Virus record (IMG/VR): IMGVR_UViG_3300034410_000463 | Location: 19,334-83,333 of that record | From: a virus | Lineage: Duplodnaviria; Caudoviricetes | Strand: one strand, 5' to 3' | DNA length: 64,000 bases | Shown here: positions 7,564 to 59,173 of the stretch, piece by piece | How the letters are laid out: each line of letters opens with the position of its first letter | How positions within the stretch are numbered: position 1 is the first letter of the stretch | The notes under the pieces: model-generated | Database searches by the model: none | What the model was told of the DNA's origin: nothing | The model's input: the letters and a program-made list of their open reading frames with translations, nothing else | Position numbers and translations under genes: made by a program

Positions 7564-9151
7564 TGGATATCTAGGCAATTCACACCTTAAAAAGGTTCAG
7601 GAACAGATTGAATGGACTCCTGAGCTTCTTAAGGAATATATGAAGTGCGCTGATGATCCTGTTTATTTTGCAAAAGAATATATTAAAATTGTACATGTGG
7701 ATCGAGGATTAGTTCCCTTTGATATGTACGATTATCAAAAAGAGATTTGTGATAAGATTTTTAAAGAAAGAAGAGTTGCAGTTTTAACAGCTCGTCAGTC
7801 AGGTAAGACCACAACAGCAGTGGCAGTTATTCTACATTATATCTTATTCAATGAATTTAAAACTGTAGCTATCCTTGCGAATAAAGGAGATGCCTCTAGA
7901 GAGGTTATGGCTAGAGTTAAGTTAGCATATGAAGCATTGCCAAAATGGTTACAGCAGGGCATCGAGGAGTGGAATAAAGGTAACATAGCACTCGAGAATG
8001 GATGCCAAGTACTAGCAGGAACAACATCTTCCAGCGCTATTCGTGGTAAATCAGTTAACTTTCTATACCTAGATGAGGTTGCCTTTATTGAAGGATACGA
8101 TGAGTTTTTCGCATCAGTATATCCAACTATTTCATCTGGTGAGAGCACTAAGCTATTAATGACTTCTACACCTAATGGATTAAATCATTTTTGGAAAACC
8201 TGTAAAGGAGCCAAAGAAGGTACAAACGGTTATGAATATCAAGAAGTAATGTGGTATGATGTTCCTGGTCGAGATGATAAATGGAAACGAGAAACACTTG
8301 AAGCTTTAGATCACGATGAACAAAAGTTTAACCAAGAATATTGTTGTGAGTTTCTTGGTTCTTCGGGTACACTTGTTTCAGGAGCTAAGCTCAAAGAACT
8401 TTATGCTGAAAAACCTATTGCTCAAAGCGAAGGGTTTATTCAATATGAAAAACCTGAAAAAGATAAAAATTATGTAATAACTGCAGACGTTGCAAGAGGT
8501 AAAGGTTTAGATTATTCAACTTTTACTGTTTTTGATATTACTGATATGCCATATAGACAGGTCGCTGTTTATAGAGATAATTATATCGGTCCAATAGATT
8601 TTGCATCTGTATTGAATAGATGTGGTAAACTATATAATGAAGCAGGTGTATTAGTAGAAATTAACGATATCGGCGGGCAAGTTGTCGATGTTTTACACAT
8701 AGACTATGGTTATGAGAATTTACTTTATACGCAAAACTCTGGGCGGAGTGGTAAAGTACTTAGTGGCGGATTCGGAAAAAACGTAGAAAATGGTATAAGA
8801 ACAACAAAACTTGTAAAGGGAACTGGTTGTTCTATGTTAAAAATGCTCGTTGAACAAAACCAATTGTTTATACGAGACCATGAAACAATACAAGAATTGA
8901 GCAGGTTTTCTAGAAAAGCTAACTCATTCGAAGCAGAATCCGGTTTTCATGATGATTTAGTAATGAATTTAGTATTGTTTGCTTGGATGACCGAGCAGGC
9001 CTACTTTAAAGATATGACTGACATAAATACATTAAAGAAGCTCAGAGAAAAAACAGAAGAGCAAATTGAAGAAGAAATGCTACCGTTTGGTTTTATCGAT
9101 GATGGAGACAATGATGATGGATTCTATCACGATGATGGCCTTCGACTATGA
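7556..9151 (+). CDS. gp17: Terminase large subunit gp17
   Basis: YLGNSHLK, ARQSGKTTT Walker A, LYLDEVAF Walker B, STPNGLNHF, ADVARGKGLDYS, HDDLVM. Confidence 0.97.
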   Translation: MGDGYLGNSHLKKVQEQIEWTPELLKEYMKCADDPVYFAKEYIKIVHVDRGLVPFDMYDYQKEICDKIFKERRVAVLTARQSGKTTTAVAVILHYILFNEFKTVAILANKGDASREVMARVKLAYEALPKWLQQGIEEWNKGNIALENGCQVLAGTTSSSAIRGKSVNFLYLDEVAFIEGYDEFFASVYPTISSGESTKLLMTSTPNGLNHFWKTCKGAKEGTNGYEYQEVMWYDVPGRDDKWKRETLEALDHDEQKFNQEYCCEFLGSSGTLVSGAKLKELYAEKPIAQSEGFIQYEKPEKDKNYVITADVARGKGLDYSTFTVFDITDMPYRQVAVYRDNYIGPIDFASVLNRCGKLYNEAGVLVEINDIGGQVVDVLHIDYGYENLLYTQNSGRSGKVLSGGFGKNVENGIRTTKLVKGTGCSMLKMLVEQNQLFIRDHETIQELSRFSRKANSFEAESGFHDDLVMNLVLFAWMTEQAYFKDMTDINTLKKLREKTEEQIEEEMLPFGFIDDGDNDDGFYHDDGLRL

Positions 9152-19204: not shown

Positions 19205-19501
19205 TTAATCTACTTGCTGCTCGATTCCTTTTACAGGCTCTAATACTGCTTCTGCAAATTGCATAAACTCTTCACTCTTAGCTGCTTCTTGAGCTAAGTT
19301 AGAAGCATGATAGATACGTGCTAGTTTATTGAAATCTTTCTTTGGGACCAAACAATCTTCGAGAATTTTCTCAGCAATTGCTTTCATATGGTCTTTTTCA
19401 GCTTCAATTCTTACCATCGAGTTAGACATTTCCTTCAAAGCATTTTGAATTTGTGTTCTATTCTTTTCGGTAATAATTGTTGGTAGTGTTTCGTCACTCA
19501 T
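19205..19501 (-). CDS. dsbA: dsDNA-binding protein DsbA (T4-like)
   Basis: KDFNKLARIYH resembles T4 DsbA KMFNRLLALYH; similar size. Confidence 0.7.
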   Translation of the reverse strand: MSDETLPTIITEKNRTQIQNALKEMSNSMVRIEAEKDHMKAIAEKILEDCLVPKKDFNKLARIYHASNLAQEAAKSEEFMQFAEAVLEPVKGIEQQVD

Positions 19502-46635: not shown

Positions 46636-46661
46636 AGTACACTCCAATCAATTTATATGTC

Positions 46662-46690
46662 ATTATAAACCAACCAGATACCAATGTCAA
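46662..46690 (-). promoter_or_regulatory. sigma70 early promoter
   Basis: TTGACA-N17-TATAAT. Confidence 0.82.
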
Positions 46691-50165: not shown

Positions 50166-50173
50166 TATTTATA
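50166..50173 (-). promoter_or_regulatory. T4-type late promoter for the glycan operon
   Basis: TATAAATA just after the porin stop codon. Confidence 0.65.
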
Positions 50174-51192: not shown

Positions 51193-51612
51193 TTACTTCA
51201 ACCAGCCAATCTTTTCGCCAGCTGCAATTCGTCTTTCAGCTTCCTTTTTTGAGCCAGGATAACGTGTCGCCCAAAGTATAATCAATCCAAACGTAATCGC
51301 CATGTAAATAGTAGCTTTAACGTTTGCAAGGGTAAAGAAAAATACTACTAATGAAGTTGACATAACTGCAACCATTAGGTATTTTGCTTTAGTGGGATAT
51401 ACACGATATGTCCCCCATTCTTTAATGAAAGGACCAAACCGTGGGTGGTTTAAAATCCAAGCATGAAATCTTTCATTTGATTTTGCGAAGCAGAAAGTAG
51501 CTCCTAAGATTGGTGTACTCCAAGGAAGACCTGGAAGAAGTACGCCTAGATAAGCGACTCCTAATAAGATAATCCCTAAGCAAAACCAAAATGCTTTTTT
51601 AATTTTATTCAT
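51193..51612 (-). CDS. ybaN: YbaN/DUF454 inner membrane protein
   Basis: GVLLPGLPWSTP, FAKSNERFHAWILNHPRFGPFIKEW. Confidence 0.88.
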   Translation of the reverse strand: MNKIKKAFWFCLGIILLGVAYLGVLLPGLPWSTPILGATFCFAKSNERFHAWILNHPRFGPFIKEWGTYRVYPTKAKYLMVAVMSTSLVVFFFTLANVKATIYMAITFGLIILWATRYPGSKKEAERRIAAGEKIGWLK

Positions 51613-51628
51613 TGTTTTTCCTTTATTA

Positions 51629-51979
51629 TTATAGTGCTGTAACTTTATCCATGTCAAAATTAATACTAATTCCGCATCCACATTCTGACGCGACGTTAGG
51701 ATTTCTCAATTCAAAATGTTGATTAAAAACATTTCTTATATAGTCAATTTCAGTTCCAGCCAAATATGCTTGCGCATCTTTATGTACGGCCAATATACCA
51801 GTATCACATTGAATTAAAAAGTAATCTGTATCTTTGACTTCTTCTTTTTGTGCAACCTTCCAATCGTATTCGAATCCGCCACAACCTCCACCTTTAATAT
51901 CTAAAGTAACGGCGTAGCAATCATGTTCTTGGCAGAGTTCGCTTACTTTAAGGTTAGCGTTTCCTGTAACAGTAATCAT
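51629..51979 (-). CDS. iscA: HesB/IscA A-type Fe-S carrier
   Basis: [28 protein letters not shown]. Confidence 0.92.
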
Positions 51980-53166
51980 TCTAATACCTCTTTTAATGCT
52001 TGCACTAACTGGATCATCATCACATCGTCGTGATAAGGAGTAGGTGCAATTCTTAATCTTTCAGTACCAGCCTGAACGGTTGGACTGTTAATAGGTTGAA
52101 TGTAAATTCCAAACTCGTTTAATAAACGATCACTTGCTTCTTTACATTTAAAAGCATCGTTAATCATTACTGGTACGATATGAGTACACGCATTTTTGTG
52201 TACTGGTATATTTGCTTCGGCCAGCATATGCTTTAACTTTATTGCTCTTTCTTGCTGTTTGTCTCTCAAATGTGGATTATCACGTAAGTACCTGATTGAA
52301 GCCAAAGCTCCTGCACAGATTATTGGACTGGTTGACGTTGTAAAAATAAATCCAGAAGCAACACATCTAATGGCATCAATAATATTACTGTTACCTGCGA
52401 TGTATCCACCTTGAACACCAAACGCCTTTCCTAACGTTCCATTAAGAATATCAATCCTATGAGACAATCCTAACATTTGACAATAACCACCGCCAGTATC
52501 TCCATAGAGGCCAACGGCATGTACTTCATCAATATAGGTCATTGCCTTATATTTATCTGCTAAATCACAGATGGCTTGAATTGGACTAATATCTCCGTCC
52601 ATTGAATATACGCTTTCAAAAACAATAACAGGAATTTGATCATTCATCTGGCATGTCTGTAACGCCAGTTCAAGTTCGTCCATATTATTATGTTCGAAAA
52701 TCATTTTAGGTGCTTTACTGTGATTGATTCCAACAATTAATGAAGCATGATTTTTAGAATCTGATATAAAACAAATATTAGGAATGATTCTACTTAAAGC
52801 AATAAGCGACCATTCATTTGCAACATAAGCGCTTGTGAATAATAAAGCACCTTCTGTTTGGTGTAAAGAAGCAAGTTCTTTTTCTAATGTAACGTGATAA
52901 TGTGTATTACCACCAATATTGCGAGTACCACCTGAACCAGATCCTGTTTGATCTAATGCGCTGTGCATTGCACTTACGACATATTCATTTTGACCTTGGC
53001 CAAGATAATCATTTGAACACCAGTTAATAATATTCTTTGGTGCATATTTGCCGTACCAAATTGAGCGAGGAAAATCTCCACGCTCTCTTAGTATATCGTT
53101 GAATACTCTGTATCGACCATCATTTTTATATTCATCAATTTTACGATCAAAGTACTCATTGTACAT
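51976..53166 (-). CDS. hemA: 5-aminolevulinate synthase (Shemin C4 pathway)
   Basis: [52 protein letters not shown]. Confidence 0.93.
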
Positions 53167-54293
53167 TATAGACTAAACCCCTTAAACGTATCGGCGGCAA
53201 CATCTTGTTTAGTACCACCTTGTACATAAGATGTAATTTCTGTTTCCTGAGGCGCAACCTGCACCTCTGCTCCTGATATCCATTTTTGAGTCCAAGGCAA
53301 TGGATTATTTTTAATGCTATATGGTGATTGTAGTTTAACATTTGTCATACGACGAGTAGCAATAAACTCAATATATTGCTGTAGTAACTCTGCATTCAAA
53401 CCAATCATAGAACCATCTTTAAACAGATATTCTGCCCAAGCTTTTTCTTGGTTTACTGCGTCAACAAACATTTGTACACATTCTGCTTCTGTTTCCTTTG
53501 CAATCTTTTCAAAGTCTTTGTCTTCTTTTCTAATAAGCTTAAGCATCAATTGAGTAGAAGCAAGGTGAATGTTTTCGTCACGAGCAATTAACTTAATAAT
53601 CTTAGCGTTACCTTCCATTTTCTTTAATTCGGCGAATGCCCAAGAACATGCGAATGAAACATAGAAACGTACACCCTCAAGAATATTAACACTCATCAAT
53701 GTGAGATATAACAATTTCTTAAGTTCATACATGTCAACTTTTACTTTCTTACCATTAACAGTATGTGTACCTTCACCAAGAAGATTATAGTAACCAGTCA
53801 TTTCAATTAGACGATCGTAATAGCCTGAGATAGAATCTGCACAATCGACGATTTCTTTTACATTCAACATCTCATCAAAAATCTTAGATGGATTAGAATA
53901 AATGTTACGAATAATATGTGTATATGAACGACTATGGATTGTTTCTGAAAAAGTCCAAGTAATAATCCAATTCTCTAGTTCTGGTAAAGAAACAATAGAA
54001 CCAAAGCTTTCAGCTGGTGCACGACCTTGTACACTATCTAATAGAATTTGCCGCTTAAGGTTACTTGTAAAAATGTGTTGCTCGTGTTCAGTAAGACCTT
54101 TAAAGTCTTTAGCATCTTGGTAGATGTCTACTTCTTCAGGGCGCCAAAAGAAGCCAAGCTGCTTGTCGGTTAATTGATCAAATTGTTTATACTTTAATGT
54201 ATCATATCTTTGAATTGTCGGACCTCCTGTTGGATCCAAAAAAGATGCAACGGATGTGTGGTCAACACGGTTGTTTACGTCAAAAACGCTCAT
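53166..54293 (-). CDS. nrdB: Ribonucleotide reductase class Ia beta subunit
   Basis: [41 protein letters not shown]. Confidence 0.97.
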
Positions 54294-54359
54294 TTGCTAA
54301 TTTCCTTTATATGAGATTTCTTATTATTATACTAACATGTTTTTTGCGGATGTCAACAG

Positions 54360-56678
54360 TTATATGGTGCAGGACTCACATTCACCGTCGTCTTCTTCGC
54401 CTTGTGCTAAAGGTTCTTCAGACATCTTATCAACATCAATTTCACCTTGACCATCATATGTATTGAAGTAATACAATTGCTTGCCGCCGTACTTATAGAA
54501 CATTAGTAGGTGTTGCAATAGTACACTCATTGGAATCTTTTCATCTTCAAAAAATACTGGATTATAACTTGTATTAACAGATATACCTTGGTCGATATAC
54601 TTTTGCAATACTGCCATAATTTTCAAATAGCCTTCGGGAGACTTTTGATCCCATAGTAAATCGTATTTATTCTTTAAGCGTCTATACTCTGGAACTACTT
54701 GCTTAAGAACACCATGCTTAGATTGCTTAACGGAAATCAATGAACGAGGTGGTTCAATACCGTTAGTAGCATTTGCAATTTGAGCTGATGTTTCACTTGG
54801 CATAAGAGCCATTAGTGTAGAATTACGAATACCTGTTTCTTTTAATTGCTCGCGCAATCCTTTCCAATCTTGACGTTCCTTGTGTGGAACCAATTCATCA
54901 AGATCTTTCTTGTAAGTTTGGTTAGGTGTAATACCTGAACCATATTTTGTTTCACAAATACCTGGGATGTTACCTTTTTCAACTGCAAGATTGGCCGAAG
55001 CTTTAATAAGATAATAAGACCATGCTTCAGCATATTCATCAACAAGCTCTAATCCTTCGGTGGTAATATCTTGATATGATAAATCATGCTTAGCCATCCA
55101 ATATGCAAAGTTAATAATACCAACACCAATTGGTCTACGCTTTTCAGTACTTAATTGCGCTGCTAAAATAGGATAGTTTTGATAATCTAATAAAGCATCT
55201 AATCCACGAACTGCAAGATCACAAGCCTTCTCAAAATCTTCTACACAACGTACGTTACCCCAATTGATTGCGCTTAAAGTACAAAGACTAATCTCACCTT
55301 CTGGGTCATTAACATCAGTAAGTGGTTTAGTTGGTAGATCAATTTCTGCACATAAGTTTGACTGGCGAATAGGAGCAAGTTTTGGATCAAACGAACCATG
55401 CTCATTTGCGTTATCAACATTTTGCAAATAGATACGACCTGTGTTTTTACGTTCTTCCATAAAGGAACTAAACAATTCAGCTGCTGGGATTTTCTTTTTA
55501 CGTAATCTTGTATTGCGCTCAGCAGTTTCATATAAACGTCTAAATTCATCTTGGTCGGCATAGAAAGCTTCGTACAAACCAGGAACGTCGCTTGGTGAGA
55601 ACAAAGTAATATCTCCACCAGTAATCAAGCGCTCATACATTACCTTATTAAATTGTACACCGTAATCCATATGCCTAACACGATTATCTTCAGTACCCTT
55701 ATTATTTTTAAGTACTAATAAATCTTCTGCTTCATAATGCCAAATAGGATAATAGATTGTAGCAGCTCCACCGCGTACTCCACCTTGAGAACAAGACTTA
55801 GTAGCAGCTTGGAACATTTTATAAAAAGGAATTATACCTGTGTGGTATGCATCACCTTTACGAATAGGGGTTCCAATAGCTCTGATCGATCCACCCCCGA
55901 TTCCAATTCCTGCTTTTTGTGAAACGTACTTAACAATACTTGAGCTAGTAGCATTGATACTATCAAGGCTGTCGTCAGTCTCAATAAGGACGCAACTACT
56001 GAATTGTCGCTGAGGTGTGCGTACACCAGCCATAACAGGAGTAGGGAGACTAATATCATGTAGACTAATAGCATCATAGTAATCCTTTACGTATTGTAGT
56101 CGTGTTTCCTCGGGATAATCATGAAACAAAGTAGCAGCAATAAGAATGTAACACATTTGTGGCGTTTCAAAGATTTCACCGGTAACTCTGTTTTGACATA
56201 GATATTTACCACGCAATTGCTCCATAGCAACATACGTTAAATCTTCATCACGAGCATGTTTAATAAAACCATCGATCTTACTCCACTCTTCGTCATTATA
56301 GTATGATATTAATTCTGGATCATAGAAACCACGGTCAATATTCTTTTCAACTAACTCTTTAACTGTACATGGAGTATAACCACCATACACTTCTTTACGA
56401 AGACCATAGTTAATTAATCTCCCACCTACGAATTGGTAGTTAGGAGTCTCTTCACTGATAAGATCAGCCGCCGCCTTAATAAGAGTTTCTTGAATTTCTT
56501 TTGAAGTAATACCAGAGAAAAACTGAATCTGACTTTTGATTTCTACTTCTGATGGTGAAACACCGGTTATATCATTACAAGCGTGAAAAACTACTTTGTG
56601 TAACTTATCTACATCCATCGGTTCTTGACTACCATCACGCTTCGTAACTTGTATAATTTGTATCATACTTTCTTTCAT
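54360..56678 (-). CDS. nrdA: Ribonucleotide reductase class Ia alpha subunit
   Basis: ATP cone VTKRDG, QFSSCVL, QSNLCAEI, SLCTLSA, MPSETS, CESCTI. Confidence 0.98.
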   Translation of the reverse strand: MKESMIQIIQVTKRDGSQEPMDVDKLHKVVFHACNDITGVSPSEVEIKSQIQFFSGITSKEIQETLIKAAADLISEETPNYQFVGGRLINYGLRKEVYGGYTPCTVKELVEKNIDRGFYDPELISYYNDEEWSKIDGFIKHARDEDLTYVAMEQLRGKYLCQNRVTGEIFETPQMCYILIAATLFHDYPEETRLQYVKDYYDAISLHDISLPTPVMAGVRTPQRQFSSCVLIETDDSLDSINATSSSIVKYVSQKAGIGIGGGSIRAIGTPIRKGDAYHTGIIPFYKMFQAATKSCSQGGVRGGAATIYYPIWHYEAEDLLVLKNNKGTEDNRVRHMDYGVQFNKVMYERLITGGDITLFSPSDVPGLYEAFYADQDEFRRLYETAERNTRLRKKKIPAAELFSSFMEERKNTGRIYLQNVDNANEHGSFDPKLAPIRQSNLCAEIDLPTKPLTDVNDPEGEISLCTLSAINWGNVRCVEDFEKACDLAVRGLDALLDYQNYPILAAQLSTEKRRPIGVGIINFAYWMAKHDLSYQDITTEGLELVDEYAEAWSYYLIKASANLAVEKGNIPGICETKYGSGITPNQTYKKDLDELVPHKERQDWKGLREQLKETGIRNSTLMALMPSETSAQIANATNGIEPPRSLISVKQSKHGVLKQVVPEYRRLKNKYDLLWDQKSPEGYLKIMAVLQKYIDQGISVNTSYNPVFFEDEKIPMSVLLQHLLMFYKYGGKQLYYFNTYDGQGEIDVDKMSEEPLAQGEEDDGECESCTI

Positions 56679-56711: not shown

Positions 56712-56719
56712 TATTTATA
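56712..56719 (-). promoter_or_regulatory. Possible T4-type late promoter upstream of nrdA
   Basis: TATAAATA overlapping the thyA stop codon. Confidence 0.45.
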
Positions 56720-59144: not shown

Positions 59145-59173
59145 ATTATATATTAAGATGTGCTAATTGTCAA
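59145..59173 (-). promoter_or_regulatory. sigma70 promoter for primase
   Basis: TTGACA-N17-TATAAT. Confidence 0.78.

Follow-up and report, generated by a model that had tools for sequence, protein, structure and literature searches.

Which genes of a marine phage belong with its 5-aminolevulinate synthase (ALAS), and does the position of that gene behind the ribonucleotide reductase (RNR) genes carry functional meaning? The question is raised by a 64,000-nt stretch of DNA (positions 19,334–83,333 of IMG/VR record IMGVR_UViG_3300034410_000463; hereafter the window) from an uncultured marine T4-like myophage, and in particular by the part of it given over to nucleotide metabolism and auxiliary genes. 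A run of genes on the minus strand of the window encodes, in order, primase, dihydrofolate reductase (DHFR), ThyA, the RNR subunits NrdA and NrdB, ALAS (the viral gene valaS), an A-type iron-sulfur (Fe-S) carrier, a YbaN/DUF454 protein, a porin-like protein, an epimerase, a methyltransferase and a glycosyltransferase. An earlier account made from the letters alone (the sequence-only reading) had taken hemA (ALAS), iscA, ybaN and the porin gene for a coordinated iron and tetrapyrrole unit coupled to nrdB. The comparisons described here favour, with moderate confidence, a smaller arrangement, namely a published valaS with a conserved YbaN partner, in which iscA and the porin gene are lineage-specific and the link to nrdB is positional. 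The coordinated unit thus survives in part: a true ALAS, a heme-linked YbaN and the co-occurrence of the two speak for it, and its iscA, porin and nrdB components fall away as lineage-specific or positional.

The product of valaS scores 553.8 bits on the ALAS model TIGR01821 and stays under the cut-offs of the sister models for bioF (300.4 bits against 426.45) and kbl (298 against 460), those for serine palmitoyltransferase being far under theirs. A BioF/KBL-type enzyme, the alternative identity that the sequence-only reading had itself raised, was rejected because these equivalog scores fall short while TIGR01821 passes, and by its profile scores the window enzyme is a bona fide ALAS. Its top solved relatives are the ALAS structures 7x98 (E = 4e-133) and 2bwn, from Rhodobacter capsulatus (E = 2e-120). 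The motif GTLGKAFG aligns with GTLAKAYG of 2bwn, which bears the lysine that binds pyridoxal 5′-phosphate (PLP), and the motifs NHAS and IDEVHAVG are kept relative to 2bwn; all these positions are invariant in alignment A1. The His, Asp and His residues of NHAS and IDEVHA are presumably the PLP-contacting positions of the enzyme. In R. capsulatus ALAS the PLP lysine is K248 (PMC11480375). Regulatory His342 (R. capsulatus numbering) is replaced by Lys in the window enzyme and the chain stops short of Cys400, as in many viral AlaS (vAlaS) proteins that are without these heme-feedback residues (Wegner et al., 2024; PMC11480375). Since both residues are missing, the enzyme probably feeds 5-aminolevulinate (ALA) into the infected cell free of heme-feedback control.

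The sequence-only reading had considered a phage ALAS unusual, which the literature does not bear out. The gene is an already published auxiliary gene and represents no new kind of auxiliary metabolic gene: valaS has been described in marine pelagimyophage-like contigs and in large freshwater phages (Wegner et al., 2024; Nat Commun 15:8783, PMC11480375), where it occurs alone or with hemO and pcyA/X, including as three-gene valaS-hemO-pcyA/X cassettes. The encoded proteins are ∼55% identical to Pelagibacteraceae AlaS and cluster apart from the bacterial enzymes, and one of them, from freshwater phage CB_2, complements an Escherichia coli ALA auxotroph (PMC11480375). More than 120 protein clusters are 76–97% identical to the window ALAS, and relatives are encoded on at least 583 IMG/VR contigs. 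Among isolated phage genomes (INPHARED) there is no ALAS relative above 34% identity, the matches being BioF/KBL or bacterial contaminant records, and no phage-type YbaN, an absence that is not a sign of rarity. The window gene resembles the published valaS in enzyme family, marine T4-like (pelagimyophage-like) setting, catalytic residues and missing His342/Cys400, and also in that hemO and pcyX lie elsewhere in related phages, comparable to the "broken cassette" or "individual valaS" cases of that paper. It differs in standing directly behind RNR genes, in its ybaN partner and, within one sub-lineage, in the accompanying iscA and porin genes; moreover, the enzyme assayed in the paper, from CB_2, is outside the window lineage. 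The text and searched supplements of PMC11480375 make no mention of DUF454/YbaN, nrd genes, Fe-S carriers or a porin, ALAS, DUF454 and a porin all go unmentioned in a pelagimyophage paper (PMC7029224), and no discussion of an ALAS-YbaN partnership was found in the literature searched. What is new here comprises the counts of cellular heme contexts, the iscA sub-lineage, and a genome in which ALAS and ybaN are both present but unlinked.

On the E. coli YbaN equivalog model NF007818 the partner protein scores 63.6 bits, under the cut-off of 163, and by profile it is a member of the DUF454 family and not a YbaN equivalog. It shares with cellular DUF454/YbaN proteins the Pfam family, the LPGxP motif and the invariant residues His56, Trp52, Trp66 and Lys77 (numbering of alignment A4), as well as the association with heme and iron genes. 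Unlike them, to which it is only ∼30–40% identical, it has a phage-specific charged C-terminal tail (RYPGSxEEAxRRIxAGEKIGWLK in alignment A4) and is paired with a heme-synthesis gene, and most phage relatives have an N-terminal extension. An AlphaFold2 model of the window protein, with a predicted local distance difference test (pLDDT) of 82.5, is all-helical with about four long hydrophobic helices, and a structure search of the PDB returned no match at E ≤ 0.001.

The pairing was examined in a locus comparison covering the best 80 of the at least 583 IMG/VR relatives, in which ALAS is 68–88% identical to that of the window. In 69 of the 74 loci with enough sequence, ybaN lies no more than 1.7 kb downstream of ALAS, and in 35 of 70 loci the ybaN start and the ALAS stop overlap, mostly as ATGA. 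Most phage YbaN proteins start with the 15–19-residue extension MNQLExAFF, the ATG of which overlaps the ALAS stop (L027–L075; L029, ∼8188–8245); the extension is missing in the window and its closest relatives, and is kept after iscA in L265, a locus that carries iscA. All five large ALAS-bearing viral records contain DUF454. Even where the two genes have separated they co-occur: a complete 201-kb phage genome with terminal repeats holds ALAS and ybaN 35 kb apart, ybaN still being near the RNR genes and ALAS now standing beside a DUF932 gene, followed by a gene for an unrelated 118–122-aa multi-pass membrane protein (displaced ALAS, L069 6995–8563 and L078 5264–6850; phage-type ybaN, L344 3889–4311). 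That small membrane protein, which has no Pfam match and is not detectably DUF454, was considered as a YbaN analogue and dropped, because the real ybaN of the genome was found 35 kb away. Taken with the distribution of iscA and the porin gene (see below), these loci suggest, again at moderate confidence, that the conserved unit is ALAS with YbaN and that the other two genes are lineage-specific add-ons. The hemA-iscA-ybaN-porin unit of the sequence-only reading is therefore upheld for its ALAS-YbaN core and not for the remainder.

When the phage YbaN alignment was used to scan one genome per species, the five best matches proved to be short phage-like contigs in metagenome-assembled genomes (MAGs) of unrelated bacteria, three of them with phage-type ALAS beside ybaN. 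In those three (L184, L187 and L188, in MAGs labelled Flavobacteriales, Polynucleobacter and Vibrio) a phage-type ALAS of 65–70% identity is directly followed by phage-type ybaN, and the contigs are probably mis-binned phage DNA.

The 75 closest cellular DUF454 loci from the same scan give a first indication of what the partner may do. Of these, 23 are directly beside heme genes, the counts being drawn from related genomes and not from independent samples. Thirteen loci of Rhizobiales type adjoin the heme ABC transporter genes hmuV/U/T (HmuV, 294 bits on NF010068), HutX also being detected in five of the 13 (175 bits on TIGR04108); five, mainly from Rhodobacterales, adjoin hemW (TIGR00539, 284.5 bits); and five from Sphingomonadales adjoin a heme oxygenase gene (PF01126, 76 bits). 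Regulation points the same way, E. coli ybaN belonging to the direct Fur regulon (PMC7157518) and DUF454 being induced by iron restriction in Avibacterium (PMC7970244), and DUF454 co-occurs with heme oxygenase at loci of the type 11 secretion system (T11SS; bioRxiv 2024.09.26.615229). The earlier claim that YbaN is tied to iron- and heme-related loci is borne out by these contexts, which support a heme-handling role. Given that its cellular relatives are iron-regulated and stand beside genes for heme import, chaperone and oxygenase functions, phage YbaN may handle heme or a tetrapyrrole at the membrane, whether in trafficking, insertion or transport.

Several observations weigh against this reading of ALAS and YbaN. 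The heme link of DUF454 is drawn from gene neighbourhood and regulation only, and the pair has no cellular precedent, ALAS lying within 6 kb in none of the 75 cellular DUF454 loci. Viral ALAS activity has been demonstrated with the enzyme of a different, freshwater phage. Although ALAS is nearby in 58 of 73 phage ybaN loci, it is not in the other 15, and a 183-kb (182.7 kb), 91%-complete genome (G206, the record of L371) has ybaN and hemO and no ALAS. Unrelated genes fill the ALAS-ybaN slot in other relatives. Among the more distant ones these encode an alternative oxidase (AOX; PF01786, 238 bits), a 2-oxoglutarate (2OG)-Fe(II) oxygenase, a conserved 274-aa membrane protein and a GroES-like protein (L096 8182–8745; L095 8188–8793; L081 8188–9012; L090 9016–9282), and a PP-loop protein is a further occupant. 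Most ALAS-ybaN loci, furthermore, come from one phage lineage, so that shared ancestry explains part of the linkage. A second record without ALAS (G210, the record of L409) has ybaN and a heme oxygenase gene ∼7 kb apart, and such genomes hint that YbaN is tied to heme generally rather than to ALA synthesis.

Uptake of unrelated genes into the slot and the occurrence of YbaN without ALAS are also what would be expected if there were no functional unit at all, and ALAS, IscA, YbaN and the porin were independent accessories gathered at an insertion-prone site downstream of the RNR genes, so that compact phage packing and shared descent would account for their adjacency and overlaps. This alternative is considered unlikely. 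The two genes stay together in the large majority of loci while their surroundings change, and co-occur even at 35 kb; about half of the ALAS/ybaN junctions overlap, mostly in the ATGA form, compared with ∼9% of the junctions in the window; and cellular DUF454 has independent heme-related contexts in three bacterial orders.

The distribution of iscA fits independent accessories better. The protein has the three cluster-ligand cysteines (C33 and the C100-G-C102 motif), invariant in alignment A3, and is under the equivalog cut-offs for IscA (TIGR02011, 52.8 bits against 150.6), SufA (TIGR01997, 71.7 against 136.2) and ErpA (NF010147, 67 against 117), and for this reason the name iscA is a loose one. 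None of the 80 IMG/VR loci has it at the ALAS-ybaN position. It was found there in three loci only, the window and the metagenome contigs L264 and L265, which share the order nrdB-ALAS-iscA-ybaN-porin; IscA of L264 is 94% identical to that of the window, and L265 has identities of 75% (IscA), 80% (ALAS) and 70% (YbaN). On this pattern, iscA is a sub-lineage insertion that has been retained there. Inserted later between ALAS and ybaN, it would add an Fe-S delivery function that related phages encode elsewhere. Like other phage A-type carriers (IscA/SufA/HesB-like), it belongs to PF01521, has three cysteines and is of a kind very common in marine viral contigs: its relatives occur on at least 576 IMG/VR contigs, and 76 of the best 80 loci have no RNR, ALAS or ybaN gene within 5 kb. 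Only in the window sub-lineage is the gene wedged between ALAS and ybaN.

An iscA gene also occurs near RNR genes without ALAS in other T4-like phages, in the order nrdB, glutaredoxin, a 96-aa protein and iscA (L119 2677–5336; L136 1788–4601; L141 3174–5336), and in L119 and L136 a gene of the haloacid dehalogenase (HAD) type precedes iscA. In contrast to the window arrangement, the Fe-S carrier genes of these three phages lie 1.2–1.4 kb downstream of nrdB, after glutaredoxin and the HAD-type gene.

The porin gene is likewise optional. It is present in ∼10 of the 80 IMG/VR loci, always between ybaN and the epimerase gene, and would be an accessory of the same variable slot, a distribution that again agrees with independent insertion. 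It also falls outside positions 51193–54293, the interval that the sequence-only reading had assigned to a module including it. The protein begins MKFLNSALLCMTLMATTAFAEE and ends EYLF, consistent with a signal peptide and a C-terminal aromatic residue. It has no curated family match (Pfam OMP_b-brl, 23.3 bits against a cut-off of 28.7; no NCBIfam or PHROG match), and its 119 metagenomic homologues are all blank or named "hypothetical protein". Its AlphaFold2 model (pLDDT 79; predicted template modelling score, pTM, 0.73) has 16 predicted β-strands, and the top Foldseek matches are the general porins OmpU, OmpK36 and the Rhodobacter blasticus porin (E = 4e-9, template modelling score 0.56–0.65). 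The 318-aa protein is thus modelled as a general-porin-like 16-strand barrel. It shares with general diffusion porins (OmpU, OmpK36/OmpC and that of Rh. blasticus) the signal peptide, the C-terminal aromatic residue and the predicted barrel size, and differs in its ∼10–14% identity to solved porins, in having no Pfam family above threshold and only unnamed homologues, and in its origin from a T4-like phage of lytic type. Lambdoid prophages also bear porins, such as Lc/NmpC, which provide a case for comparison.

The adjacency to nrdB, in which the sequence-only reading saw a link to the di-iron centre of NrdB, is explained by the variability of the upstream genes. RNR genes stand immediately before ALAS in 72 of the best 80 IMG/VR loci, and nrdA homologues 87–92% identical to that of the window occupy the same position in relatives. 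Three RNR types nevertheless fill the slot upstream of ALAS: the class Ia nrdA-nrdB pair; a 565-aa NrdA combined with an ATP-cone NrdB; and a third type that shares just 25–35% identity with the ATP-cone type (for example L005, at G000:C102 10037–13856; IMG/VR L024–L103). In the same region thyA with DHFR alternates with thyX, while the flanking primase gene and glycan cassette are constant, and whole nucleotide-metabolism cassettes have been replaced in place between primase and ALAS in related phages. As three RNR types are exchanged within constant flanks, the ALAS-RNR adjacency represents inherited synteny and calls for no specific NrdB-iron link; it looks like inherited gene order in a hyperplastic region, a positional rather than functional tie. 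The exchange of RNR type and of thyA for thyX is equally compatible with ALAS and its neighbours having no joint function.

The junctions of the run can be read in the same manner. One base is common to the stop of nrdB and the start of ALAS (cTAtAATGtac, TAATG), and the ALAS stop and iscA start have a four-base overlap (gaATGAtt), both as the sequence-only reading had described. Start-stop overlaps in the run are limited to these two. Translation of ybaN likely begins with the ATG at 51612, which follows AAAGGAAAAACA, and the gene would then occupy 51193–51612; iscA and ybaN are thus separated by a 16-nt gap with no overlap, and ybaN and the porin gene by 60 nt. Greedy gene calling across the window gave 91 same-strand junctions, of which 28 show an overlap, in 14 cases one of exactly 1 or 4 nt. 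Start-stop overlaps are ordinary in this genome and the coupling to nrdB would be generic compact packing, three RNR types filling the upstream slot; the same count suits independent accessories.

Transcription signals provide a further point in favour of independence, for ybaN has a promoter-like site of its own. A perfect sigma-70 consensus site inside the 3′ end of iscA sits 15 nt upstream of the ybaN ATG (Table 1), and with it in place, one coupled operon for the whole run is not the most economical explanation; the site matches at 11 of 12 positions in L264 and is not conserved in L265. Perfect 12/12 sites (TTGACA, 17–18 nt, TATAAT) were observed on the minus strand at 59145–59173, 51628–51657 and 46662–46690, just upstream of the coding-strand starts of the primase gene, ybaN and the gene at 46647, respectively, and resemble T4-type early promoters. 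Late-type TATAAATA motifs on the minus strand bracket nrdA through the porin gene, and with the one following the porin stop the neighbouring unit, the glycan cassette, probably begins. The window has 13 such motifs against 7.7 expected (plus strand, 2090, 9160, 9183, 15110 and 16897; minus strand, 29847–63296), several of those on the plus strand lying directly upstream of structural genes (sheath, major head protein). A consensus scan for intrinsic terminators within the run found nothing beyond weak minus-strand hairpins in coding sequence, which were not used. Contigs from marine RNA libraries of three studies, which carry no strand information and may include DNA carry-over, bridge the nrdB/ALAS, ALAS/iscA and ybaN/porin junctions and lend weak support to transcription of the region; parts of it lacking such contigs are not evidence of silence.

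Table 1. Coding and candidate regulatory features between the motif upstream of nrdA and the porin gene (window positions).
Feature	Position	Strand	Basis
Sigma-70-like site, 11/12 with TG, before nrdA	56765-56737	-	Consensus match; function inferred
T4-late-type TATAAATA motif, just upstream of nrdA	56712..56719	-	Motif match; function inferred
nrdA, class Ia RNR large subunit, 772-aa open reading frame, first gene after late-type motif	54360..56678	-	Homologues
Sigma-70-like match, 10/12, extended TG, nrdA-nrdB spacer	54329..54356	-	Consensus match
nrdB, class Ia RNR small (di-iron) subunit	53166..54293	-	NF006576, 521.6 bits vs cut-off 346
valaS, viral 5-aminolevulinate synthase, 396 aa	51976..53166	-	TIGR01821, 553.8 bits vs cut-off 338.55
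iscA, A-type Fe-S carrier (IscA/SufA/ErpA family), 116 aa	51629..51979	-	PF01521, 39.2 bits; TIGR00049, 74.5 vs 58.8
Perfect sigma-70 consensus TTGACA-18-TATAAT, inside iscA 3′ end	51628..51657	-	12/12; function inferred
ybaN, YbaN/DUF454 inner-membrane protein, 139 aa	51193..51612	-	PF04304, 92 bits vs 35.1, profile positions 1-114/115
Porin-like outer-membrane beta-barrel protein, 318 aa	50176..51132	-	Signal peptide, C-terminal ...EYLF, structure model
Late-type TATAAATA motif between porin stop and epimerase gene	50166..50173	-	Motif match

That the region belongs to a phage is apparent from the T4-like myophage set in the window (a gp15-type sheath stabilizer, tail sheath, portal, major head protein, DNA ligase and primase). 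In its major capsid protein the phage shows 62–65% identity to Sinorhizobium phage phiM12, Methylophilales phage Melnitz and Pelagibacter phage HTVC008M, and on this comparison it has no close cultured relative. The exact stretch was found in marine DNA runs of at least seven studies. Its contig (C116, 91.8 kb) has been binned in a 3.6-Mb, 274-contig MAG (G000; 100% complete, 5.1% contamination) classified within the Alphaproteobacteria, a group of which ALAS is typical (present in 162 of 201 genomes searched), and these two circumstances could be taken to mean that the region is cellular, an alphaproteobacterial island or prophage in which ALAS is the host hemA and no lytic phage is involved. 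Such an origin is very improbable and is effectively refuted by the complete T4-like structural and replication gene set, by nearest relatives that are IMG/VR viral contigs, some of them complete genomes with terminal repeats, by the three phage ALAS copies in the one bin (C116, C183 and C102), and by the bin already holding its own cellular ALAS, 53% identical to that of the window and in a housekeeping context with ispG, prfA and prmC. Co-binning is no evidence that the phage infects an alphaproteobacterial host of this kind.

The bin combines contigs from three or more related myophages with an alphaproteobacterial genome (C116, C183/C78, C102, C105, C172 and C173 versus C169 and C175); in total, ALAS is present in four copies, alongside several sets of nrdA/nrdB and three pairs of hemO and pcyX. 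In the published survey viral and bacterial AlaS clustered separately except for one Rhodobacter-like bacterial bin from marine sponge symbionts (PMC11480375), which could be the same mis-binning artefact. When phage contigs with ALAS end up in MAGs of unrelated bacteria, the pathways inferred for those MAGs can be misleading, and for G000, a species representative, inference of pathways or copy number would mislead.

A further question is the fate of the ALA. The enzyme would condense glycine and succinyl-CoA to ALA, the committed step of tetrapyrrole and heme synthesis, and the product might simply top up respiratory heme. A possible alternative, which we regard as somewhat doubtful, is that ALA mainly feeds a phage route from heme to bilin, comprising ALAS, host heme synthesis, a phage heme oxygenase and a phage PcyX-type reductase; it could free iron for Fe-S and di-iron proteins, with YbaN and IscA on the heme or iron side. 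Three pairs of hemO and a bilin-reductase gene (pcyX) are found on other contigs of G000, matching the number of its phage ALAS copies, and hemO is present in four of the five large ALAS-bearing viral records as well as in a ybaN-bearing genome without ALAS. The cellular contexts in Sphingomonadales and at T11SS loci, where DUF454 stands beside heme oxygenase, and the published three-gene cassettes are in keeping with it. Against this, hemO and pcyX lie on contigs other than that of the window ALAS and are only presumed to share a phage genome with it, no bilin acceptor was identified for the window phage, and the purpose of the catabolic genes has been called enigmatic (PMC11480375). Because related phages and the other phage contigs of the bin carry hemO and bilin reductase, ALA may go into heme, part of which is then converted to bilin and free iron, and this route is as plausible as a simple respiratory-heme top-up.

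For marine T4-like phages, the context added to the 2024 survey is that valaS almost always travels with a DUF454/YbaN gene, that cellular DUF454 is found beside heme genes in three bacterial orders, and that one sub-lineage has an inserted Fe-S carrier. Tentatively, DUF454/YbaN may be a membrane handler of heme or tetrapyrrole (acting in transport, as a chaperone or in protection from free porphyrin) that these phages recruited along with an ALAS free of feedback, an Fe-S carrier and a porin being added in some lineages, so as to steer new tetrapyrrole and its iron. Should YbaN indeed act on heme or porphyrin, phages would be manipulating heme by synthesis, trafficking and breakdown and not by one extra enzyme, and the phage pairing together with the three cellular contexts (hmuTUV-hutX, hemW and hemO) would provide the first testable functional assignment for DUF454, from E. 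coli to marine phages.

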